A stretch of 64,000 nt of DNA from positions 33,898-97,897 of IMG/VR virus record IMGVR_UViG_646311924_000007; one strand, given 5' to 3'. The first letter of the stretch is position 1; each line of letters opens with the position of its first letter. The position numbers and the translations under genes are program-made. This document shows, one piece after another, positions 6,496 through 64,000 of this stretch. The notes beneath the pieces were generated by a model. The model worked only from the letters and a program-made list of their open reading frames with translations. It was not told the DNA's origin and made no database searches. The stretch comes from a virus (taxonomy: Duplodnaviria > Heunggongvirae > Uroviricota > Caudoviricetes).

Positions 6496-6512
6496 AATGC
6501 TCTAATAAATTT
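6496..6512 (+). promoter_or_regulatory. C1 repressor operator-like 17-mer (AATGCTCTAATAAATTT) upstream of the c4/icd/ant module
   Basis: 16/17 match to the phage P1 C1 operator consensus ATTGCTCTAATAAATTT; positioned like P1 Op51. Confidence 0.6.
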
Positions 6513-6699
6513 GTATTTTTAAGTCGCGAATGCTATCTTTTCGCATCATATTGACCTTTTAATCGTTCAGGCTTATAGTTCCGCCGTCGTAGCAAATTCT
6601 GCGACCGGGTTTAGCAGCCTGAATGATTGTGCGGACAGCCGCAGATATCCGATATTGCGGTATTTTTGTGTCCGTAAAACCGCGTTACGCCCAAATTAT

Positions 6700-6776
6700 G
6701 GTGGGGCGTGATGGGGAGGCTTCGGCCTGCTGGTTTCACAATCGCCAGTCTGCTAACCCCGTCACGTCCTGCCACC
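6700..6776 (+). ncRNA. c4: candidate c4-like antisense regulatory RNA
   Basis: GC-rich segment with self-complementary ends (GGTGGGG...CCTGCCACC) between the operator and icd, in the position of P1 c4; has a 7-nt stretch (CTGCTAA) complementary to the icd leader; boundaries approximate. Confidence 0.3.
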
Positions 6777-6826
6777 TGTTTAGCAGCGGGTAGCAGGTTG
6801 TTAAACCTGATTGTGAGGCCGTAACT

Positions 6827-7048
6827 ATGGTTAATGCCAATCCTTGCGCACGCCAAGAATTCATCTGGCGTTTCTATTCCTGTAAAAAACACCACTATCA
6901 CTTCGTTATCGCAGCAACAGAAGACGAAGCACGCTCTCAATTGCCTGATGGCCCCTGCATTTTTACTGCCCGTTTTTCAACTAACTCGCGCAATTCACTT
7001 AGTTACTGGAACCTCCCCTTCTCTGCCGACGTTCAGGGGGGTTTATGA
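6827..7048 (+). CDS. icd: Icd-like protein (73 aa)
   Basis: 73-aa ORF whose TGA overlaps the ant ATG (ATGA), size and position as in P1 icd. Confidence 0.75.
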   Translation: MVNANPCARQEFIWRFYSCKKHHYHFVIAATEDEARSQLPDGPCIFTARFSTNSRNSLSYWNLPFSADVQGGL

Positions 7049-8082
7049 AAAAACCTCTCGTCACCCGTAATGACATAGCCGAAGCTATCGCCCTGCATAC
7101 TGCCTGTATGCCGACACGGGAGATCCCCGGCGCAATTGCCAACTATTTCATGATAACCAGACGTTTTTATACCCGAACAGATAAGGCTGTGATCAACAAG
7201 CTACTGATAGCCGAGATCAGGGATTATTTGATTGAACAAGGACGTCTACGTTACGCAACAGTGGCAGCAGAAATGAGAAAGGAGGCACATAGAATGACCG
7301 GTAATAATTTGAATGTTGAAAAAACAGCACCTGTTACGTCAGCTACGCCAGCACCAGCCGTGAATATCATCCCCAACACCGGAGACACAATCGACAGCCT
7401 GACACTGTTAAAGATGGTCAATGAAGCGCGTAAGTTATGTGGGGAACCAGAGGTTCGGAACAACAAATTCATAGAAAAAATACTCGATGAGCTTGATGGT
7501 GAGCACTACACAAAAAGTGTAGTGGAAAAAATGAACAAAACATCAATGCTTGTCATAACCATGACCTACAAACAAGCCCTGCGAGTCGCCGCACGCGAAT
7601 CAAAAGCCGTCCGCCGTTCGCTGATCGACAAACTGGAAGAATTGCAGCAGGCAAACTCCCCTACCCCATCGATCCCCCAAACATTACCAGAAGCTCTACG
7701 CCTGGCTGCCGAGTTGGCAGAACAGAAAATGCAGTTGGAACAACAGCTGGTGGCCGCAGCCCCTAAAGTCGATTTTGCCGACCGGGTATCAGCGGCTAAT
7801 GGAATCCTGATCGGGAACTTTGCAAAGGTCGTTGGACTTAAGCAAAACGCCCTTTTCTCATGGTTGCGCCAGAACGGCATTCTCATGGCTTTTGGTGCGC
7901 GCAAAAACGTACCGCGCCAACAGTACATCAACGCCGGATATTTCACGGTGAAAGAAGTGGTGCTGGATGATGAAGATGGCTACCAGATACGGCTGACGCC
8001 CCAATTAACGGGTAAAGGCCAGCAGTGGTTAACTCGCAAGCTACTTGATGCTGGTTTGTTAAAACCAGTAGCAATAGGTTAA
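7045..8082 (+). CDS. ant: antirepressor Ant (ORF6N + KilA-C-type domains)
   Basis: 345-aa ORF directly downstream of icd; C-terminal PKVDFADRVS...YFTVKE...TGKGQQWL motif shared with KilA and the second Ant copy. Confidence 0.8.
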   Translation: MKKPLVTRNDIAEAIALHTACMPTREIPGAIANYFMITRRFYTRTDKAVINKLLIAEIRDYLIEQGRLRYATVAAEMRKEAHRMTGNNLNVEKTAPVTSATPAPAVNIIPNTGDTIDSLTLLKMVNEARKLCGEPEVRNNKFIEKILDELDGEHYTKSVVEKMNKTSMLVITMTYKQALRVAARESKAVRRSLIDKLEELQQANSPTPSIPQTLPEALRLAAELAEQKMQLEQQLVAAAPKVDFADRVSAANGILIGNFAKVVGLKQNALFSWLRQNGILMAFGARKNVPRQQYINAGYFTVKEVVLDDEDGYQIRLTPQLTGKGQQWLTRKLLDAGLLKPVAIG

Positions 8083-8095
8083 CAAAAGAAAAAAA

Positions 8096-8120
8096 CCTGC
8101 CAGCAAACTGGCAGGTTTCT
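8096..8120 (+). terminator. rho-independent terminator after ant
   Basis: Hairpin CCTGCCAGC-AA-ACTGGCAGG followed by TTTCT, 14 nt after the ant stop. Confidence 0.6.
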
Positions 8121-8160
8121 GAGCAGATCGACCAACCCGATCTGGATCGAGTCAGAAAAA

Positions 8161-8177
8161 TTTGCTCTAATAAATTT
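8161..8177 (+). promoter_or_regulatory. C1 operator-like 17-mer (TTTGCTCTAATAAATTT) upstream of kilA-repL
   Basis: 16/17 match to C1 operator consensus, 86 nt upstream of kilA ATG; positioned like P1 Op53. Confidence 0.6.
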
Positions 8178-8246
8178 CGTTTTCTAAGTGCAAAGAATCA
8201 CCATTTCGAGCTGGTGATTGAAGGTTGATGCAAATTTGGAGAAAAA

Positions 8247-9047
8247 ATGCAACAAACATTCAATGCGGATATGAATATATCAAACCTTCATCAAAATGTC
8301 GATCCTTCAACCACTCTGCCCGTTATTTGTGGTGTTGAAATTACGACCGACCGCGCTGGCCGTTACAACCTTAATGCTCTACACAGAGCGAGCGGACTCG
8401 GTGCCCATAAAGCGCCAGCTCAATGGCTAAGAACGCTGTCAGCTAAACAGCTCATCGAAGAGCTTGAAAAAGAAACTATGCAGAATTGCATAGTTTCGTT
8501 CGAAGGCCGTGGCGGCGGCACTTTTGCCCATGAATTGCTCGCAGTGGAGTACGCTGGTTGGATTTCTCCCGCGTTTCGGCTGAAGGTAAACCAGACATTT
8601 ATCGACTATCGAGCTGGAAGATTACAACCTGCTATTCCGAAGAGCCTCCCAGAAGCTCTCCGTTTGGCTGCCGACCTGGCAGAGCAAAAGCAACGGCTGG
8701 AGCAAAAAATGCTGATGGATGCACCTAAAGTCGAATTCGCCGAACGCGTTGCTACCGCCAGCGGGGTTCTAATCGGCAACTATGCCAAAGTGCTCGGCCT
8801 GGGCCAAAACTATCTCTTCACCTGGTTGCGTGATAACGGAATTCTGATCGCAACCGGTGAACGCAGGAACGTCCCCAAACAAGAATACATATCCCGTGGG
8901 TATTTCACCCTTAAAGAAACCGTGATCGATACAAGCAATGGAAGCAGGATTTCTTTCACGACTCGTATAACCGGCAAAGGTCAGCAGTGGCTGATGAAGC
9001 GATTGCTTGATGCTGGTGTGCTGGTACCTGTCGCGGCAGCGCGCTAA
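8247..9047 (+). CDS. kilA: KilA (KilA-N + KilA-C domain protein, 266 aa)
   Basis: 266 aa as in P1 KilA; N-terminal RYNLNALH segment; C-terminal KilA-C motif (PKVEFAERVA...YFTLKE...TGKGQQWL). Confidence 0.8.
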   Translation: MQQTFNADMNISNLHQNVDPSTTLPVICGVEITTDRAGRYNLNALHRASGLGAHKAPAQWLRTLSAKQLIEELEKETMQNCIVSFEGRGGGTFAHELLAVEYAGWISPAFRLKVNQTFIDYRAGRLQPAIPKSLPEALRLAADLAEQKQRLEQKMLMDAPKVEFAERVATASGVLIGNYAKVLGLGQNYLFTWLRDNGILIATGERRNVPKQEYISRGYFTLKETVIDTSNGSRISFTTRITGKGQQWLMKRLLDAGVLVPVAAAR

Positions 9048-9076
9048 CAGACGTAGTAAGAACCACCAGCATTGTA

Positions 9077-9922
9077 ATGCTGGCTAAAGTCACTTTCCTG
9101 AGCTGTATAACGATGAGCGATTTTACTTTTTCTGGCTATGAATTGGCCTGCTTTGTAACACACTCCGGTCTATCCCGTAGCGCCGGGCATATCCTGTCGC
9201 AATGTGCAAATCTCGCGGCAACAACCAGTGAATACTTCATTCACAAGCCTCACCGCCTGATCGCGGCAGAAACTGGTTATAGCCAATCAACCGTCGTTCG
9301 TGCATTCCGTGAAGCTGTAAACAAAGGAATCCTGTCAGTAGAGATTGTTATCGGCGATCACCGTGAACGTCGCGCTAACCTGTACCGGTTTACACCATCC
9401 TTTTTGGCCTTCGCACAACAAGCAAAAAATGCGCTGATTGAAAGCAAATTAAAGATCTCTTCAGCGGCAACCAAGGTTAAAGCTGTTCTCGCTAAGACAT
9501 TGGCTTTATTTAATTTTTTATCCACACCCCCATGTCAAAATGATACCCCCTCCCCCTGTCAGGATGACGTGGCAATAAAGAATAAGAAGTCACAATTTAA
9601 AAAAACAAAAAGATCAGTTTCCGGCGCTGCCGGAACGACCAAACTCAAAAAATTGACTTCATGGATCGCTGAGGCAAAAGCAAAGGCTGACAATCTGCGG
9701 TTATCCAAAAAACGCGCTCAAAAACATGAGTTCAAGCAGAAAGTAGAGGCGGCAGCGCGGAAATATGCTTACCTGAAGAACAAGCGTTCTCCTGATATTG
9801 GCGGGGTATCAAACTTCGATAATCTGCCGCATTGCATGACGGTAAACGAAGCTCTTAATGCGGTTTTAGCCAAAAATAAAGATAACGAACAATGGGGTAT
9901 ACCGGCAGGATTCAGAGGGTGA
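9077..9922 (+). CDS. repL: RepL-like lytic replication protein (281 aa)
   Basis: 281-aa ORF immediately downstream of kilA, same size and position as P1 repL; Lys-rich C-terminal half. Confidence 0.7.
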   Translation: MLAKVTFLSCITMSDFTFSGYELACFVTHSGLSRSAGHILSQCANLAATTSEYFIHKPHRLIAAETGYSQSTVVRAFREAVNKGILSVEIVIGDHRERRANLYRFTPSFLAFAQQAKNALIESKLKISSAATKVKAVLAKTLALFNFLSTPPCQNDTPSPCQDDVAIKNKKSQFKKTKRSVSGAAGTTKLKKLTSWIAEAKAKADNLRLSKKRAQKHEFKQKVEAAARKYAYLKNKRSPDIGGVSNFDNLPHCMTVNEALNAVLAKNKDNEQWGIPAGFRG

Positions 9923-10218: not shown

Positions 10219-10625
10219 TACAATCGTTGCGGGTGCTTGAGGCTATCTGCTTCAGGCATTACCCGAAAAGCAGATAGAAGAAAGCCCCAGATAACATTAC
10301 GCGTCCTGCAAGACGCTTAACATTAATCTGAGGCCACATCTATGCTTAGCATACGTAGATTAGCCTCTTACCGACCAAAAGGTCAAGGAGAAGCAGGCTA
10401 TGAAGCAGCAAAAAGCGATGTTAATCGCTCTGATCGTCATCTGTTTAACCGTCATTGTGACGGCACTGGTAACGAGGAAAGACCTCTGCGAGGTACGAAT
10501 CCGAACCGGCCAGACGGAGGTCACTGTCTTCACAGCCTACGAATCTGAAAGGTAAGAGACCTGGCGGGGAGAGATCCCCGCCACTCTTCGTGTGTCAGGT
10601 ATCCTCAATGCACCCTTTCCTCTCC

Positions 10626-28094: not shown

Positions 28095-28169
28095 GATGGT
28101 GTAGCTCAGCGGTAGAGCAGTTGGCTGTTAACCAACTGGTCGGTAGTTCGAATCCACCCACCATCGCCA
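28095..28169 (+). tRNA. tRNA-Asn (anticodon GUU)
   Basis: Hand-folded cloverleaf: 7-bp acceptor GATGGTG/CACCATC, D-arm GCTCAGCGGTAGAGC, anticodon loop CUGUUAA, T-loop TTCGAAT, 3' CCA encoded; coordinates anchored to overlapping track ORFs. Confidence 0.8.
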
Positions 28170-28174
28170 CTTTA

Positions 28175-28261
28175 GGGGAGTTAGTCCGTAGGGGTAGCGG
28201 GGTAGACTGTAAATCTACTGTCATTGCGACTCGGGTGGTTCGACTCCATCACTCCCCACCA
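28175..28261 (+). tRNA. tRNA-like gene, class II, anticodon GUA (Tyr-like)
   Basis: Acceptor GGGGAGT/ACTCCCC, anticodon stem-loop GTAGA-CUGUAAA-TCTAC, 15-nt variable arm, T-arm GGTGG-TTCGACT-CCATC, CCA encoded; D-arm geometry irregular by 1 nt. Confidence 0.45.
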
Positions 28262-28265
28262 CATT

Positions 28266-28341
28266 GCCGATTTAGCTCAGTTGGTAGAGCAGTCGCTTTG
28301 TAAGCGAATGGTCAGCGGTTCGATCCCGTTAATCGGCACCA
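28266..28341 (+). tRNA. tRNA-Thr (anticodon UGU)
   Basis: Acceptor GCCGATT/AATCGGC, D-arm GCTCAGTTGGTAGAGC, anticodon loop UUUGUAA, T-loop TTCGATC, CCA encoded. Confidence 0.8.
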
Positions 28342-28345
28342 ACAT

Positions 28346-29076
28346 AACAGGTAAGAGCATTCTCCCTTATGGGGCCTGGCTTAAATGCATCGAGTGCTCT
28401 TACCGTTGTGATGAAGTGCAGATCTTAGAAGCAACCAGAAGATAAGCATCTGGCTTCACAACATAAACCGCAGGAACGACCAATAAACGGTAGTCCGTAT
28501 GGAGAACACCCCGTTGAGGAAGAGGCCTGGCCGGAACCGTAACCGGCGACTGGTAATGTGTGTAAATGGAGCGAAATATGTGGGCGTTTAACGGGATACG
28601 GGTTGTAACAGCGATTATTAACGGCGAACTTAAGTATTCACGTTTCGAGACAAATGAACGTGATGGGAAATGTATTGGTGTGCGGTTAGTAAGAGAATAC
28701 GCATAACAACTACAACGTTGAGAACACTGGCGTAACGGGGTCATATCCCAATCTACGAATAAATGTTGCGTTGCCGCGTGACAACCAGTGTTCTCAACAT
28801 TGTGGTGAATGCACAGGCTGATGTGCCGCAACTACAGTAGTGCGCGCTTTGCGGGGCTTGCTACAACCCTGTGTCGGAGTTCAGCACCGACCATCACAGT
28901 TTGATTCTCTGGCATGAGCATAACGCTGAAATAAGTCCAGTCTGGTGCGGTCTGATCACCCGCCGTTAGCTCCACGAAACGGAGCACGTAACAGGTAAGA
29001 GCATTCTCCTGTAACGGGTTCATATCCCAATCTACAGGTCCACCAAGAATGCTCTTTCCGTTGCGGTGAATGCGGC
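28346..29076 (+). repeat. ORF-free tract with three repeated hairpin units (candidate structured RNAs)
   Basis: Repeated blocks ACAGGTAAGAGCATTCTCC (x2), GTAACGGGKTCATATCCCAATCTAC (x2) and TTGYGRTGAAKGC (x3), each embedded in 10-18 bp inverted repeats; only implausible ORFs across it; coordinates +/-1. Confidence 0.45.
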
Positions 29077-29214
29077 TAAGCGCACGCGGGGAAATGGTTA
29101 TATCTGTCCATTATTTCTCCTTGTTTCCACGTCCACGGTGGATAACCAGCCAAAGGACACCGGGAGGAACCCGGCACCGCAGCTTTTTTATTCGTTAAAT
29201 AATGGAGTGAGAGG

Positions 29215-29451
29215 ATGCAGAACAATCCGAACAAATGTCGAACGCTATGGGTGCGGTTATATATTTATGCCGTCCTCTGTTTGATTGTGTCACTGGTTCT
29301 GTATGTTTGGCTTTTGCCAAATATGATCTCATCTAACAGCACAATACTTGTATTGTTGGGAGTCCTTCTCGCGCTCATTTACCCGGCTTTCGCAGTAGTC
29401 TTTTTTCGTGAAAAAACCAGGAAATTAATTAATGAAAAAAACGTTGATTAG
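29215..29451 (+). CDS. small integral membrane protein (78 aa)
   Basis: Two TM helices; overlaps the start of the downstream lipoprotein gene. Confidence 0.45.
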   Translation: MQNNPNKCRTLWVRLYIYAVLCLIVSLVLYVWLLPNMISSNSTILVLLGVLLALIYPAFAVVFFREKTRKLINEKNVD

Positions 29452-42269: not shown

Positions 42270-42812
42270 GTTCACAGATAAAACACTCTCCAGGAAACCC
42301 GGGGCGGTTCAGACCGGATATAACCGATGATCTGTTCTATCTGGATTTGGACACGGTTATTGCCGGTGATATACGCCCAATCCTTGAGAATCCACCAACC
42401 TGCTTCACCATGCTTAGGGATTTTTACCATCCACAATATCGTGGTAGCGGTGCCCTGTGGATACCAAATAGTGTAAAAGCACATATCTGGAGTTCATTCT
42501 GGCAAGATCCGGAAGGTTGGATTGCTCGTTGTGTCACTACTGAGTGCTGGGGTGATCAGGGGTTCTTACGGAAGGTTATGGGCGATGATACACCAGCATT
42601 TCAGGATCTGTATCCAGGATGGTTTGTAAGTTACAAGGCCGATGTTGTGGAACCTGGTTCAAAATATGCGAGCGCGCGTTACTCCAGGGGGAATGGGGCA
42701 TTACCAAAGGACTGCCGAATAATCTTTTTCCACGGCAAACCGCGGCCTCGCGAAGTGTCAGAGGATTGGCTTCCCCTCATTAGCTCGTTTTTTGAGCGAG
42801 AATCAGAATAAT

Positions 42813-57926: not shown

Positions 57927-59410
57927 TGGCCAGAAGTTGCGTAACGGACCCACGTTGGCGCGAGCTGGTGGCGCTATATCGTTATGACTGGATTGCGGCC
58001 GCTGATGTGTTGTTTGGGAAGACACCAACCTGGCAGCAGGATGAGATCATTGAGTCCACGCAGCAGGACGGCAGTTGGACAAGTGTGACCTCCGGCCATG
58101 GTACTGGTAAGTCGGATATGACGAGTATCATTGCAATACTCTTCATCATGTTTTTCCCCGGCGCTCGCGTTATTCTGGTCGCTAACAAAAGACAGCAAGT
58201 CCTTGATGGTATTTTCAAATACATAAAGAGCAATTGGGCTACTGCTGTTAGCAGATTCCCGTGGTTGTCGAAGTATTTCATTCTTACAGAAACGTCTTTT
58301 TTTGAGGTGACTGGCAAGGGTGTTTGGACAATATTGATAAAGTCCTGTCGCTCCGGAAATGAGGAGGCGTTGGCTGGTGAACACGCCGATCATCTCTTGT
58401 ATATCATCGACGAAGCGTCGGGTGTGAGTGATAAAGCATTCAGTGTGATAACAGGTGCGCTGACCGGTAAGGATAACCGTATTCTGCTTCTTTCCCAGCC
58501 TACGCGACCTTCAGGCTATTTCTACGATTCACACCACAGACTAGCTATTCGCCCGGGAAATCCTGATGGATTGTTTACTGCGATAATACTGAATAGTGAA
58601 GAATCTCCGCTTGTAGATGCAAAATTTATACGAGCAAAACTTGCGGAGTATGGCGGTCGTGATAACCCCATGTACATGATCAAAGTACGTGGTGAATTTC
58701 CCAAATCTCAAGATGGCTTTCTTCTTGGTCGTGATGAGGTTGAGCGGGCGACGCGGCGAAAGGTCAAGATTGCCAAAGGATGGGGCTGGGTTGCATGTGT
58801 TGACGTTGCTGGTGGCACAGGACGAGATAAGTCCGTTATTAATATCATGATGGTGTCCGGCCAGCGAAATAAACGCCGTGTAATCAACTATCGTATGCTG
58901 GAATACACAGACGTTACAGAAACGCAGTTAGCCGCCAAGATTTTCGCAGAATGTAACCCAGAACGGTTCCCGAACATAACCATAGCTATTGATGGCGATG
59001 GCTTGGGGAAATCGACGGCTGATCTGATGTACGAACGCTATGGTATTACCGTCCAGCGTATCCGCTGGGGTAAAAAGATGCACAGCCGTGAAGATAAAAG
59101 CCTTTATTTCGATATGCGCGCTTTCGCGAATATTCAGGCGGCAGAAGCTGTAAAATCAGGGCGTATGCGGCTTGATAAGGGGGCTGCGACTATAGAGGAA
59201 GCATCAAAGATACCGGTAGGGATAAATTCCGCAGGTCAATGGAAGGTGATGTCAAAGGAAGATATGAAGAAAAAACTCAACCTGCACTCACCGGACCATT
59301 GGGATACATATTGTTTCGCTATGTTGGCGAACTATGTTCCCCAAGATGAAGTGCTTAGCGTCGAAGACGAAGCGCAGGTTGATGAAGCTCTGGCATGGCT
59401 TAATGAATGA
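57926..59410 (+). CDS. pacB: terminase large subunit PacB (494 aa)
   Basis: 494 aa; translationally coupled to pacA (ATGA overlap); ATPase-like GTGKSD motif. Confidence 0.8.
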
Positions 59411-59413
59411 ATA

Positions 59414-59430
59414 TTTGCTCTAATAAATTG
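59414..59430 (+). promoter_or_regulatory. C1 operator-like 17-mer (TTTGCTCTAATAAATTG)
   Basis: 15/17 consensus, 4 nt after the pacB stop. Confidence 0.6.
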
Positions 59431-59612
59431 TGTTTTTTAACTACCGATGTTACATTGAGCCTGACCTCTTGCGCCTTGAGGCATTTTCGGTTTATGCTTA
59501 TCAGGCACCTCATTAAAACGGGTGCCGGGATTGGCCTCCCGCTTAAGTCTAAGGCGATACAGACGCCGCTCGCGTCTTTTTTTGTATCGGCGTACACGCA
59601 CACCTCTACAAT

Positions 59613-59691
59613 GGTGGGCTGTATGGGGCTACCTTCGGGTAGGCTGGTTACCTTGGACGCCAGTAAGGCCAACTCCGTACAGTCCACCGCC
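59613..59691 (+). ncRNA. candidate second c4-like antisense RNA
   Basis: Begins GGTGGGC and ends CCACCGCC like the module-1 candidate; contains CCTTGGACG, 8/9 complementary to the icd-2 RBS region; boundaries approximate. Confidence 0.3.
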
Positions 59692-59748
59692 AGCAAGATT
59701 GGTCTCTTCTGCGGTGGTTACATACCAACGTCTAAGGAGGCTGCCAAT

Positions 59749-59970
59749 ATGGCTACTATCCCTACCCCAACTCATCCTGAATTTATCTGGCGCTTTTACT
59801 CCTGCCAAAAACGTCACTATCACTTCGTTATTGCACCAACAGAAGATGAGGCTCGCTCTCAGCTTCCTGACGCCCCATGTATTTTCTCTGCCCGTTTTTC
59901 CACTGATTCACGCAATTCTCTCAGTTACTGGTGCCTCCCTGTTAACGCTTCTGCTCAGGAGGGACTATGA
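59749..59970 (+). CDS. Icd-like protein, second copy (73 aa)
   Basis: MATIPTPTHPEFIWRFYSCQKRHYHFVIAPTEDEARSQLPDAPCIF... is a clear paralogue of Icd; stop overlaps the original ATG of the downstream ant-like gene. Confidence 0.7.
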   Translation: MATIPTPTHPEFIWRFYSCQKRHYHFVIAPTEDEARSQLPDAPCIFSARFSTDSRNSLSYWCLPVNASAQEGL

Positions 59971-60015
59971 GAATGAACCGCCCCGGGTTTCCTGGAGAGT
60001 GTTTTATCTGTGAAC

Positions 60016-60906
60016 TCAGGCTGCCAGATCATCGTTTCCGATGGAAGCATAATAAGCTTTTTCTGCTTCTGCCGGAGGAGTATGGCCCAGCCTTCCCAGC
60101 AATCGTCGATTGTTATACCAGTCCACCCACGTTAGTGTGGCCAGTTCCACTTCTGCACGGTTTTTCCAGCTCTTACGGTGTATTACCTCCGCTTTGTAAA
60201 GACCATTGATGCTCTCAGCCATCGCGTTGTCATACGAGTCGCCTGTACTCCCTGTTGATGCCAGTAATCCGGCTTCTTTTAGTCGCTCCGTATAGGCCAG
60301 TGACACATACTGAGAGCCTTTATCGCTGTGATGGATGGTGCCAGACGGACGACGGGCCCACAACGCCTGCTCCAGCGCATCCAGCACGAATGTCGTTTCC
60401 ATAGACGATGAGACCCGCCACCCCACGATGTATCCGGCAAACACATCAATGATAAACGCCACATAGACGAAGCCCTGCCATGTGCTGACGTAAGTAAAAT
60501 CAGCCACCCACAGCTGGTCAGGTCGTTCTGCCACGAACTGACGGTTTACGCGGTCGCCTGCGGCAACGGCTTTCCGGCTGATGGTCGTACGGACCTTTTT
60601 ACCCCGGAGAACACCGGCAAGTCCCATAACCGCCATGAGACGTGCCACTGTACATCTGGCCACCCTGATTCCTTCCCGTAACAACTGACGCCAGACTTTA
60701 CGCACACCGTACACCTGATGATTTTCATCGTATACGCGCTGTATCTCTCTCTTCAGCCAGTCGTCGTGCTGCGCACGGGCACTGCGTTTATCCGGATGAT
60801 GTCGCTGTTGCTGACAATGGTAATACGTTGACGGGGCAATATGCAGTTCGCTGCATACCGGTCCGACCCCGTACTGCTCACGCAGCTTATCCAGCAGTGG
60901 CATCAT
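60016..60906 (-). CDS. IS3-family transposase OrfB
   Basis: Protein identical to 41379..42269. Confidence 0.85.
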
Positions 60907-61229
60907 TTTTTCCAGAGGCGGTCGAACTCCGCCTTCGCAAAATAAGCGGAAGCCTGGCGAAGGATATCGTTACTGCGGCGCAGTTCACGATTTTCACGTT
61001 CCAGCTCTTTCAGACGCTGACGTTCAGCGCTGGTGAGCCCACCATCACCGCCCCCGGTATCCCGCTCATGCTGGCGAACCCAGACACGCAGAGTCTCCGG
61101 CGTACAGCCAATCTTTGGGGCAATGGAACAAATTGCCGCCCACTGTGAGTCATATTCATCCTGACTTTCCAGAACCATACGAATCGCCCGCTGACGGACT
61201 TCGGGGGAAAAACGAGTATTTTTAGTCAT
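60903..61229 (-). CDS. IS3-family transposase OrfA
   Basis: Protein identical to 41056..41382. Confidence 0.85.
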
Positions 61230-61309
61230 CCTGTTTACCTCTTTCTCAGGGAGTTTAGTCTCCAGGATTTCCGGGGCGGTTCAGAACGTCATTAGTCACC
61301 CGTGAAGAG

Positions 61310-62398
61310 ATGATCGAGGCAATTGAACAGCACACAATCTGTATCAGCACCAGGGATATACCTGGCGTTATTGCCAACTACTTCATGATCACCAAACAAC
61401 TTTACCGGAGAAAGGACAAGAACGCGGTTCACCGTATCCTGTTGTCTGATATCCGCGAATACCTGCTCGAACAGGGTCATCTGAATTACGCAACCGTCGC
61501 AGCCGAAGCACGCAAGGAGGCACACAGAATGAAAGCAAATAACGTTAAATTAGAAAAAATTCATGCACCTTCAGTTCAGGAATCGGAGCTGGTGGTTGTT
61601 CAGAATCAGTCTGATGAAATTCCCGTTCTGGAATGGCAGGGAGTGCGTGTAGTGACAACCGAGACTCTTGCGAGAGGGTATGGGACAGAAACAATCCGTA
61701 TTCGCCAAAATCATCATGAGAACAAAGTACGCTTTGTTGAAGGGAAGCACTTTTTCAAAGTTGAAGGAGAATCATTGCGCGAGTTGAAGCACAGAGTAGC
61801 TTTAAACTACTCTGTAAAAATTGCTCGCAATGTTCGCTCACTCACCCTCTGGACAGAACGCGGCGCAGCCCGCCACGCTAAAATGCTCGAAACCGATCAG
61901 GCATGGGCATTCTTTGAAAAACTGGAAGACAGCTACTTCCGACAAAAAGAACAGCAACCGATCGCAATCCCCCAGACGCTTCCTGAAGTCCTACGCCTGG
62001 CTGCCGAACTGGCTGAACAAAAGCAACTTCTGGAACAGAAAGCCCACCAGCTAAATCAGCAGCTGGTGGCCGCCGCTCCTAAAGTCGATTTTGCCGACCG
62101 GGTATCAGTAGCTAAAGGGATCCTGATTGGGAATTTTGCAAAGGTTGTTGGACTTAAGCAAAACGCGCTGTTTGTCTGGTTACGGGAGAACGGCATCCTG
62201 ATAGCGTCCGGTGGACGTAAAAATGTGCCGTTCCAGCAGTACATCAACGCGGGGTATTTCACGGTGAAAGAAGTGGTGCTGGATGATGAAGATGGCTACC
62301 AGATACGGTTGACGCCTCAATTAACGGGTAAAGGCCAGCAGTGGTTGACGCGTAAACTGCTCGATGCTGGCTTGTTAAAACCGGTGGCGGCTGAATAA
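61310..62398 (+). CDS. antirepressor Ant paralogue (ORF6N + KilA-C-type), 5' end displaced by the IS insertion
   Basis: 362-aa ORF; C-terminal 150 aa about 85-90% identical to Ant; original start ATG lies at 59967 on the other side of the IS. Confidence 0.65.
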   Translation: MIEAIEQHTICISTRDIPGVIANYFMITKQLYRRKDKNAVHRILLSDIREYLLEQGHLNYATVAAEARKEAHRMKANNVKLEKIHAPSVQESELVVVQNQSDEIPVLEWQGVRVVTTETLARGYGTETIRIRQNHHENKVRFVEGKHFFKVEGESLRELKHRVALNYSVKIARNVRSLTLWTERGAARHAKMLETDQAWAFFEKLEDSYFRQKEQQPIAIPQTLPEVLRLAAELAEQKQLLEQKAHQLNQQLVAAAPKVDFADRVSVAKGILIGNFAKVVGLKQNALFVWLRENGILIASGGRKNVPFQQYINAGYFTVKEVVLDDEDGYQIRLTPQLTGKGQQWLTRKLLDAGLLKPVAAE

Positions 62399-62430
62399 TG
62401 GAAGAATGCCCGGTTGATGCCGGGCATAAT

Positions 62431-63282
62431 TTATTGCGCGCTTTCGGGGTTGTCGTTTACTGGCTGCCCCTTCTTGGTTTTACGGCTGCGCGCAACTGAT
62501 GCGGCTGACTTAACCTTTTTCTCTTCGCGAGTGATGGCAATTTGTTTTTTTACATTTTCAATATCTGCCAGGCGATATATTTTTGCCTGCGGCCAGCGGT
62601 CGCAGATGATCGGTTCTATAGAGTCATAAAGGCTAAATTTTGCTTTCTCGAATTCACCGTTGATGATGATTCCATCACGGAGAGTTTCATCGCAGATAAA
62701 CACACCACACAGCGGCACATGGTAACTAACTGATTTACCATCATTGTAGTTAGGGCTACTGGAAATGTAATGGACGCGCAGCATTGTTTCGCTAAAGCCG
62801 TGTACACGCATACGGAATTTTTCATCCTCCGGGTACTGCTTCATTAGCTCTTTTGTTGCTTCCAGGTTCTCTATGTATTTCGCACTGTGCTCATTGATCC
62901 CCGCGCTTTTCTGGATGCGAATGTCCTTATCAATCAGATGAATAATGCGGCCAGCGGTCATGTTGACGCTGTTCACAGCTTCTGTCTGATAAGTTGTAAC
63001 CTTACGCACACCGCGAAGGATGTTAGGCACTGGATATAAAATAGTCTTTGGGATATTGAGGTCTGGGTACTGTTCCAGTTCCCGCGCCATTAAAGTCCAT
63101 TTATCAATTTCAGCCTGAATGCTGTCCGTTTCTTTGAACGGCAGAACGACAACCGGGCGTACAGGACGACCGTCGCTGGCGGCATCAACGTGTTGGGCGC
63201 GTGCAACAGCTTTTTTTAGAAAGAGATCCCTGAAGCTGACGAACTCCTGGTACAGTTGTTCGCCGTAGACATAATTTATCAT
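62431..63282 (-). CDS. c1: C1 repressor of lysogeny (283 aa)
   Basis: 283 aa; MINYVYGEQLYQEFVSFRDLFLKKAVARAQ... is P1 C1 as I recall it; operators upstream. Confidence 0.9.
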   Translation of the reverse strand: MINYVYGEQLYQEFVSFRDLFLKKAVARAQHVDAASDGRPVRPVVVLPFKETDSIQAEIDKWTLMARELEQYPDLNIPKTILYPVPNILRGVRKVTTYQTEAVNSVNMTAGRIIHLIDKDIRIQKSAGINEHSAKYIENLEATKELMKQYPEDEKFRMRVHGFSETMLRVHYISSSPNYNDGKSVSYHVPLCGVFICDETLRDGIIINGEFEKAKFSLYDSIEPIICDRWPQAKIYRLADIENVKKQIAITREEKKVKSAASVARSRKTKKGQPVNDNPESAQ

Positions 63283-63375
63283 TGATCCTCCTCCAGAATT
63301 GACATGGCCAACAACTCACAGCGGATTACACTGGGAGTTGTTGGCCACCATTATAGAAGGATCCAACGAAAATAA

Positions 63376-63392
63376 TAGATTTATTAGTGCAT
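63376..63392 (-). promoter_or_regulatory. C1 operator-like 17-mer between coi and c1 (ATGCACTAATAAATCT core)
   Basis: Operator-like site abutting the coi stop codon, upstream of c1. Confidence 0.5.
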
Positions 63393-63602
63393 TTATTGTG
63401 AGTCTGGCTGGTTAGTGGCCATGAGATATTCGATTGTGTCAGTGAGATCATCCAGGTCGTCTTGGGTGATGCGGTACTCCTGATTGGATATCTTTGAGTA
63501 GTGTTCAGCAATGGCGCGGGCAGCGTCGGTTTCGGCAGGGTCTACAGATAAAGCGTTAGAGCAATGTCTAACGTCGTCGATGGTTGGTTGAATGAAAGCC
63601 AT
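63393..63602 (-). CDS. coi: Coi, C1 inactivator (69 aa)
   Basis: 69 aa as P1 Coi; located upstream of c1 on the same strand. Confidence 0.85.
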   Translation of the reverse strand: MAFIQPTIDDVRHCSNALSVDPAETDAARAIAEHYSKISNQEYRITQDDLDDLTDTIEYLMATNQPDSQ

Positions 63603-63840
63603 AATTATGCCTCACTGTATTGACAACACAGAGCCTGAAGCTCTGACCTACTGTTTCACCCATGATCCATGCTGGGGTAATCTAACAACATTGCGCTGTG
63701 TGTAAGATGAGCAATGCATAGCTGTAATGCCGTTGTATAAGGTTTCCCTGTTTGCTCATTTCCTTCTGAGCCGCTCTACAACGCTGAAGACACATTAAAT
63801 AGTGAATCCAAAGTCGTATTACGTAACGGCGGCAAAACTA

Positions 63841-63857
63841 TAATTTATTAGAGCAAT
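63841..63857 (-). promoter_or_regulatory. C1 operator 17-mer (inverted; ATTGCTCTAATAAATTA)
   Basis: 16/17 consensus match in the immC control region. Confidence 0.6.
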
Positions 63858-63923
63858 TGTCAAACAACTATGAAAAACAATCCAGTTTTTGGCTGGTGGA
63901 GTGGGATTTTTCTCTCAAAATTT

Positions 63924-63940
63924 ATTGCTCTAATAATTCT
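63924..63940 (+). promoter_or_regulatory. C1 operator-like 17-mer (ATTGCTCTAATAATTCT)
   Basis: 14/17 consensus; divergent pair with the 63841 site. Confidence 0.6.
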
Positions 63941-63983
63941 TGATTTTTATGCGTAGCTGGACGTAAACTCCTCTTCGGACCTA

Positions 63984-64000
63984 ATAACTTCGTATAGCAT
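63984..64000 (+). other. loxP: loxP recombination site, first 17 of 34 bp (window edge)
   Basis: ATAACTTCGTATA + GCAT matches the left arm and start of the spacer of loxP; anchored to the window end. Confidence 0.8.

Follow-up and report, generated by a model that had tools for sequence, protein, structure and literature searches.

The 97,897 bp plasmid pO111_2 of Escherichia coli O111:H- strain 11128 (AP010962.1), which is a P1-like phage-plasmid, probably carries a second immunity operon of the immI type between its pacB and c1 genes, in which the antirepressor gene (ant-2) was cut off by a recent insertion of the insertion sequence (IS) IS629 and immunity through a C4-type antisense RNA (C4-2) was kept. 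The whole stretch of DNA that was analyzed, referred to below as the window, comprises 64,000 nucleotides and represents the last 64 kb of that plasmid; the corresponding locus of AP010962.1 matches window positions 58310-64000 base for base. The canonical immI operon (module 1: operator, c4, icd and ant1, followed by kilA and repL) is located at approximately 6496-9922 and occupies the canonical immI site (6496-8082). The second cassette (module 2) does not share the canonical map position between sim and kilA/repL and is instead preceded by pacA and pacB, which end at 59410, and followed on its far side by c1, coi and half a lox site. A first-pass annotation of the window had proposed a second immI-like cassette at this position, and the region indeed contains an operator-like site, two promoter-like sites at the offsets found in P1, a C4 RNA with paired targets, and an icd-ant junction with an ATGA overlap. 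Module 2 adds one more member to the C4/IsrK-Icd-Ant kind.

In its intact form the operon would read, in order, a C1 operator with two promoters, an IsrK-like leader RNA (containing sites a1 and b1), C4-2 as a processed RNA, sites a2 and b2, icd-2 and ant-2. By analogy with the immI operon of P1 and the isrK locus of Gifsy-1, C4-2 would pair with a2 and b2 and block translation of icd-2, and thereby expression of ant-2, with the a1 and b1 sites of the leader competing for C4-2. Translation of ant-2 would be coupled to that of icd-2 through the overlapping ATGA.

Evidence for this arrangement comes from C4-2 and its target sites. The GC-rich structured segment that had been described as c4-like is a full-length match to RF01695 (Table 1), with a higher score than the canonical C4-1 RNA of module 1 (6694-6779; 69.6 bits as compared to 75.9 bits), and is predicted to fold with a minimum free energy of −41.6 kcal/mol (z = −3.5). 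Site b2 overlaps the Shine-Dalgarno sequence of icd-2 (AAGGAGG, 59734-59740). An IMG/VR query with the Icd-2 protein yielded 79 loci, from which we aligned 22 distinct leaders of the module-2 type. Across the C4 fold and the a'/a2 and b'/b2 helices, 98.3% of the 946 cells in that alignment are standard pairs, a figure that falls to 27-50% when the partners are slid by 1-3 columns, and 16 of the 43 pairs have changed on both sides. All 27 internal pairs of the C4 family fold are kept in the 22 variants (nine with both sides changed), and the a'/a2 and b'/b2 helices are 92% and 100% paired, respectively, with seven pairs changed on both sides. Pairing of a' with a1 and of b' with b1 is complete (100% of cells), and compensatory changes are found in seven of those 15 pairs. 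The observed covariation score was reached by no shuffle, in a control that overstates significance because the sequences are related.

The same relationships extend to 64 related loci, which fall into five specificity classes. In each class the a' and b' elements of the C4 RNA match both a2 and b2 over the icd ribosome-binding site and a1 and b1 in the leader, with an imperfect three-way match in none of the loci. The classes represent five of the nine possible combinations of three a determinants (UUGGCCU, UUGAGAC or UUGGAAC) with three b determinants (GUCUAAGG, GCAAAAGG or GUCAAAGG), and their compensatory changes link the C4 loops, the upstream decoy sites and the downstream sites at the icd ribosome-binding site. 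Independent assortment of a and b, with each changed in three places at once, would be hard to explain without selection for RNA-RNA pairing. Leaders of the module-1 type behave similarly with other determinants, displaying approximately seven a/b combinations (an approximate figure, read by eye from the alignment). These specificity classes, with their three-way compensatory changes among 64 loci, are the new finding of this analysis.

The first-pass annotation had also suggested that the two cassettes of pO111_2 are probably hetero-immune, and the comparison of their recognition elements agrees with that suggestion. The elements are unrelated (CUGCUAA and CACAAUC in C4-1; AGGCCAA and CCUUGGACG in C4-2), and cognate duplexes are predicted to have energies of −8.5 to −14.5 kcal/mol, as compared to −0.7 to −7.1 kcal/mol for non-cognate duplexes; between the two modules, cognate pairing is 2 to 10 kcal/mol more stable. 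The two C4 RNAs of the window are therefore predicted to be orthogonal and the cassettes to be hetero-immune, and since module 2 and the canonical immI operon have different recognition sequences, the two should be regulated independently. Module 1 of pO111_2 is itself not of P1 specificity: its a and b determinants are UUAGCAG and GAUUGUG, and those of P1 are UUGACAG and GUUAGUG (window positions 6573-6830 compared with positions 262-466 of the P1 locus, L083).

Upstream of these elements, the C1 operator-like site predicted after pacB is present with two mismatches to the consensus and is conserved in RCS47 and NZ_CP027443. The window contains 15 sites of this kind, as compared to 0.35 expected by chance. 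Judged by sequence, this operator-like site overlaps a putative promoter of the operon: the −35 element of the P2c4-like candidate covers the 3' end of the operator, and the P1 offset is kept. The elements of that candidate are displaced from the operator by +14 and +37 (+14 and +38 in annotated P1), and those of the P1c4-like candidate by +55 and +79 (+55 and +78 in P1). The transcription start predicted for the latter falls close to where the isrK match begins. Both promoters remain putative assignments, made by positional homology with P1 only.

The leader that would follow these promoters matches RF01394 (isrK) at 59505-59582 over the full length of the model (positions 1-77 of 77) with 60.8 bits (gathering threshold 50), and its terminator comprises a GC-rich stem of six pairs followed by a run of seven T residues. 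It is a leader of the IsrK/P4-satellite type with a canonical intrinsic terminator, and not a copy of the a1b1 leader of P1. The leader of module 1 instead matches the Rfam family c4-a1b1 and contains at most a weaker hairpin-plus-U tract that was not flagged by a terminator scan. A terminated, IsrK-like leader upstream of a small open reading frame (ORF) and an antirepressor gene is the arrangement of the Gifsy-1 isrK type. In loci of that type the short leader RNA acts in trans to activate translation of the read-through mRNA; in the predicted minimum-free-energy fold of the module-2 read-through RNA, a1 and b1 pair in cis with a' and b'.

The product of icd-2, whose stop codon had been noted to overlap an ATG at position 59967, is 81% identical to Icd-1, matches NCBIfam NF033153 (49.8 bits; cut-off 25), and is annotated as WP_000201261.1 in relatives; a Pfam search with the 73-residue Icd proteins returned no match. 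The overlap of the icd-2 TGA with the ant-2 ATG (ATGA, 59967-59970) is present in every related locus with a readable junction. The gene call of the source record at 59407-59970 describes a 187-residue ORF (Pfam Phage_ASH) that spans the operator, leader and C4 RNA, and its equivalent is labelled 'ash family protein' in RefSeq relatives. The supported gene within that interval is the 73-residue icd-2, and the long ORF call hides the RNA genes.

Downstream of icd-2, IS629 lies 7 nucleotides into ant-2, followed by the remainder of an Ant paralogue, as had been described. The element is complete (1310 bp), with terminal inverted repeats (TGAACCGCCCCGG...CCGGGGCGGTTCA), orfA and orfB with a frameshift signal (ALIL pseudoknot RF01497; 121.5 bits) and a 3 bp GAA target duplication (59971-59973 and 61284-61286), and it is 100% identical to annotated IS629 copies in Stx phage records. 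A continuous ant frame after icd-2 is absent from the window, and a frame of 372 codons is obtained only when the IS is removed in silico. With the IS and one copy of GAA removed, the module displays 0 mismatches over 1707 positions to NZ_CP027443.1 (strain 2013C-3252), in which the intact gene is annotated as 'phage antirepressor Ant'. The restored protein is identical to WP_001260629.1 of that plasmid, and the splice proposed at the first pass agrees exactly with the sequence of intact relatives (ATGAGAACGTCATTAGTCACCCGTGAAGAGATG). The exact GAA-flanked element and the perfect restoration indicate a simple and very recent transposition.

No other record with the junction between IS629 and icd-2 was found when the phage collection, PLSDB and 5,426 complete E. 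coli genomes were searched (collections to which the window's own record does not belong), and an exact-protein look-up placed the truncated Ant-2 protein on one contig only, AP010962.1. The disruption by IS629 is confined to pO111_2 and is biologically unremarkable. Two possible parallels were rejected. In Stx2 phage VT2phi_272 (L086, HQ424691.1, 1801-3111) an IS629 adjoins an 'ant' gene, which could have indicated a shared hot spot; the Ant gene there is a different one, located inside the lysis cassette, and neither c4 nor icd is present. The element in VT2phi_272 is directly upstream of Ant and in the same relative orientation as in pO111_2, which is probably a coincidence. Three icd matches are present in IMG/VR contig 2698536372_000019, which was considered as a carrier of the same IS; the contig proved to be a draft scaffold joined by N stretches and does not contain the IS. 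A second IS629 in the window (41002-42311, plus strand, with a GAC duplication) displays 0 mismatches to the copy in ant-2 and interrupts another ORF.

Restored Ant-2 contains an ORF6N domain (residues 116-202) and a KilAC domain (residues 260-361; PF03374, E = 4.7e-31), of which Ant-1 has KilAC only. The two proteins are 55% identical overall, with similar first ~90 residues, nearly identical last ~140 residues and an unrelated middle; relative to P1 Ant1, the N-terminal ~90 and C-terminal ~140 residues of Ant-2 are close, and the last ~80 near-identical. Ant-2 also has an in-frame internal start (ATG 61529, Met84; Shine-Dalgarno AAGGAGG at 61514-61520) that aligns with the start of P1 ant2 at codon 84. 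Nearly all relatives with a complete ORF encode an Ant of 370-372 residues, or a variant of 340-364 residues, together with the ATGA overlap, indicating that ant-2 is normally maintained. Truncated forms are found in four loci: an IS3-family ISSen4 at codon 36, in the minus orientation like IS629 (L084, NZ_CP060066.1, 1376-2598); a single indel that ends the frame at 55 residues (L085, pO26_10153_1, NZ_AP027192.1); and ORFs truncated at 60 residues (L054) and 254 residues (L056). These are independent knock-outs of ant-2, and all four loci have kept the leader, C4 and icd.

The first-pass annotation held that the IS severs ant-2 from its start. This is correct, and what the gene has been separated from comprises the operator and promoters, the C4 RNA, the coupling with icd and the first two and one-third codons. 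A correction concerns the internal Ant2-type frame, which is untouched; codons are lost from the full-length (Ant1-type) product only. Translation coupled from icd-2 enters an 80-residue fusion ORF (59967-60209) within the IS, beyond which approximately 1.1 kb of untranslated RNA precedes ant-2. The + strand across the IS is 30.5% C and 24.3% G, a composition that would suit Rho loading. A consensus scan found no sigma-70-like + strand promoter between the IS and ant-2, and the transposase genes of IS629 point towards icd-2. In P1, ant expression requires icd translation and is subject to Rho-dependent polarity. By that analogy, full-length Ant-2 could not be made from the interrupted gene, and the short product would probably be untranscribed. 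The insertion has deprived ant-2 of its start codon, of translational coupling with icd-2 and of direct promoter access, and most likely leaves it silent. Since the insertion has left the operator, the leader, C4-2 and icd-2 as they were, production of the immunity RNA by the plasmid should continue. We believe the most likely outcome to be a silenced ant-2 with persisting C4-2 and icd-2, in which pO111_2 would remain immune, through C4-2, to incoming cassettes of matching specificity and could no longer use Ant-2.

Several observations weigh against this reading. Both putative promoters of module 2 score under the threshold of a consensus promoter scan of 59350-62450, which identified no + strand promoter before the leader or ant-2. 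The internal Ant2-type start and its ribosome-binding site lie downstream of the IS and are intact. The ant-2 coding sequence has not decayed, and sequence alone therefore cannot establish loss of function. Finally, the central ORF6N domain of Ant-2 is unlike the middle region of P1 Ant1.

The intact internal start, homologous to that of P1 ant2, and the absence of decay in ant-2 would fit a cassette that is still partly functional under altered regulation, producing either a short Ant2-type protein (from ATG 61529) or a 362-residue protein by read-through of the IS or from a cryptic promoter. Read-through would meet only one weak + strand terminator-like hairpin inside the IS (59983-59995; five pairs). 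We regard this explanation as improbable, given that the C-rich, untranslated RNA after 60209 would favor Rho-dependent polarity, if the icd-ant dependence of P1 applies here, and that no promoter-like site faces ant-2. Elements of the IS3 family have an outward −35 element in their right end, and the right end of this IS629 faces icd-2, away from ant-2. The ATG at 61310, with which the 362-residue frame begins, is without a usable ribosome-binding site. The annotated P1 record describes an Ant1/Ant2/C1 complex, so that a short product alone may not suffice.

The unusual center of Ant-2 bears on a different question, namely whether the protein would act on C1 at all. It might be aimed at other repressors (those of lambdoid prophages or satellites), or the operon might mainly deliver Icd-2, in which case the resemblance to immI would concern its regulation only. 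Beyond the replacement of the middle region of P1 Ant1 by ORF6N, this idea draws on the observations that the leader/C4 scaffold shares 85-89% identity with that of P4-satellite-like islands, where unrelated genes follow, and that KilAC antirepressors hit varied targets, such as that of Gifsy-1 AnrP (PMC4825925). Its probability appears low to us: a C1 operator-like site precedes the cassette, the termini of Ant-2 closely match those of P1 Ant1, and other P1-like elements have the 'MRTSLV' type of Ant at their canonical immI site, indicating that the two Ant types interchange. In the reading that we favor, Ant-2 would act on C1. A misassembly that placed a collapsed repeat in a truly intact ant-2, conceivable with two identical IS629 copies in the plasmid and many more in the host, is barely credible in view of the exact junctions, the full-length 1310 bp element, its 3 bp duplication, the base-for-base restoration and the finished state of AP010962.1.

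The positions of the features of module 2 and its right-hand border are collected in Table 1. Elsewhere in the window, Rfam searches identified a sok antitoxin RNA of the hok/sok type, together with four tRNA genes (10231-10405; 28095-30359).

Table 1. Elements of module 2 and its right-hand border, numbered by window position
Feature	Position	Strand	Remarks
C1 operator-like site	59414..59430	+	TTTGCTCTAATAAATTG; 2 mismatches (15/17) to P1 consensus ATTGCTCTAATAAATTT; 3 nucleotides past pacB stop
Putative C1-controlled promoter (P2c4/P51a-like)	59428..59456	+	−35 TTGTGT 59428-59433; TG 59448-59449; −10 TACATT 59451-59456
Putative second promoter (P1c4/P51b-like)	59469..59498	+	−35 TTGCGC; 18-nucleotide spacer; −10 TATGCT
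IsrK-like leader RNA	59505..59583	+	Decoy a1 UUGGCCU 59531-59537; decoy b1 GUCUAAGG 59547-59554; intrinsic terminator 59561-59583
C4-type antisense RNA (C4-2)	59607..59694	+	RF01695, full length, 75.9 bits (gathering threshold 45)
C4-2 recognition elements	b' 59651-59659; a' 59666-59672	+	Within C4-2; b' loop CCUUGGACG; single-stranded a' AGGCCAA
C4 target sites in icd-2 mRNA	59699..59740	+	a2 UUGGUCU 59699-59705; b2 CGUCUAAGG 59729-59737
icd-2, Icd-like cell-division inhibitor paralogue, intact	59749..59970	+	73 amino acids; 81% identical to Icd-1
ant-2, 5' remnant	59967..59973	+	ATG AGA A; ATG overlaps icd-2 stop (ATGA); 59971-59973 is left GAA copy
IS629 (IS3 family), complete	59974..61283	-	1310 bp; orfA 61229-60903; orfB 60906-60016; frameshift pseudoknot 60948-60832
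ant-2, 3' part	61284..62398	+	Right GAA copy 61284-61286; codon 3 onwards; longest ORF 61310-62398, 362 amino acids
GC-rich hairpin between convergent ant-2 and c1, likely terminator	62406..62427		9-pair stem, ATGCCCGGTTGATGCCGGGCAT
c1 repressor gene	62431..63282	-	283-residue ORF; annotated as C1 in relatives and P1; right-hand neighbor of module 2

Comparison with P1, P7 and other relatives had been recommended. In agreement with the expectation that P1 does not have the module, its pacB and c1 stop codons are separated by only 24 nucleotides. P7 matches the pacB and c1 flanks only (31% query coverage), as does phiW39, and the module is present in RCS47, JL22 and vB_EcoM-673R5. Among PLSDB records, 592 match pacB and 433 match the module leader (294 with an identity of at least 80%); roughly one in two P1-like plasmids thus has module 2 at the pacB-c1 position. 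Far from being unusual, the module is common, already annotated and already in the literature, where Venturini et al. (2019) noted it as an ant insertion, with mention of RCS47. Our literature search, which did not extend to several key subscription papers, found no description of its RNA genes or specificity.

The cassettes are mosaic within P1-like elements. In two IMG/VR loci (L029 and L039) a leader and C4 of the module-2 type occupy the canonical immI site, approximately 330 nucleotides upstream of icd and with kilA and repL following, and in loci L066-L082 leaders of the module-1 type precede an 'MRTSLV' Ant of the ORF6N type. These mixed pairings indicate that leader, icd and ant recombine as separate pieces. 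The module-2 leader and C4 also match 134 chromosomal places in the 5,426 complete E. coli genomes, five of which are listed at 94-99% coverage with identities of 85-89%. The two that we examined (L088, NZ_CP029747.1, 3995-4260; L089, NZ_CP034808.1, 3990-4255) are in integrase-primase (P4-satellite-like) islands.

A large group of phage-plasmids involved in the spread of resistance genes has P1 as its reference, and accounts of the P1 immunity circuit usually draw on P1 and P7 only. An extra cassette occurs in about half of the sequenced relatives, for which the textbook circuit is therefore incomplete. Effects of the cassette are to be expected on superinfection immunity, on cross-induction of co-resident elements and on prophage stability, and its natural compensatory variants represent ready-made orthogonal RNA-target pairs. 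The IS629 allele has little significance beyond indicating that plasmid maintenance does not require ant-2 in one lineage of enterohaemorrhagic E. coli. At least five classes are present among leaders of the pacB-c1 type and approximately seven among those of the immI type, and some determinants are common to P4-like satellites. As a tentative and rather speculative proposal, two independently assorting, RNA-coded immunity cassettes, each with several orthogonal classes composed of exchangeable a and b determinants, might form a combinatorial code for induction and exclusion among co-infecting or co-resident elements, in which the IS629, ISSen4 and frameshift alleles would be 'defence-only' derivatives that have given up the antirepressor and kept the antisense RNA. 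The importance of the finding would rise if such a code operated among phage-plasmids and satellites.

Module 2 closely resembles the immI operon of P1 and P7, the immunity circuit of which is summarized in PMC8198154 and PMC8546580. The P1 record annotates Oc4, P2c4, P1c4, a1, b1, c4, a2 and b2 near the icd start, icd, ant1 and ant2 (codon 84). Shared by both systems are a C1 operator and two (in module 2, putative) promoters at offsets that agree within 1 nucleotide, a C4 RNA of one Rfam family with a' and b' elements that would recognize a1/b1 and a2/b2, the placement of b2 over the icd ribosome-binding site, an Icd protein (81% identity), the icd-ant ATGA overlap and a KilAC antirepressor with an internal Ant2 start. 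They differ in that immI is located between sim and kilA and module 2 between pacB and c1, that the module-2 leader is of the isrK type with a terminator (c4-a1b1 in module 1) and its recognition sequences are unrelated, and that its Ant has an ORF6N center and, in the window, is split by IS629. The ant insertion at pacB-c1 in RCS47, pTZ20_1P and many E. coli plasmids corresponds to module 2 in both locus and genes, with RCS47 annotating 'ant' between pacB and c1. The records and papers of that type that we compared annotate proteins only, and not the RNA genes, operator or specificity classes, and none of the records has IS629 in ant-2.

In the isrK-orf45-anrP locus of Gifsy-1 in Salmonella (Hershko-Shalev et al. 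2016, PMC4825925), a leader small RNA, a processed RNA and a small ORF control an antirepressor-like protein through translational coupling, and its authors point to a structural likeness with P4 seqA and CI. Module 2 has a similar arrangement of a terminated leader, a read-through mRNA, a C4/CI-like RNA (the processed STnc1160 in Gifsy-1) and a small ORF coupled to an antirepressor-like protein. Gifsy-1 has orf45 upstream of that protein, whereas module 2 has a 73-residue Icd homolog and a preceding P1 C1 operator-like site, and isrJ, which lies downstream of the antirepressor in loci of the Gifsy-1 type, had no match in the whole window at the Rfam gathering threshold. The islands that encode P4-type satellite immunity (CI RNA, seqA/seqC) are chromosomal and have an Ash/Icd-like gene and then a primase downstream, where module 2 has ant. 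Their leader and C4 are 85-89% identical to those of module 2 over 244 nucleotides, and they share its a determinant (UUGGCCU/AGGCCAA) and differ in their b determinants.

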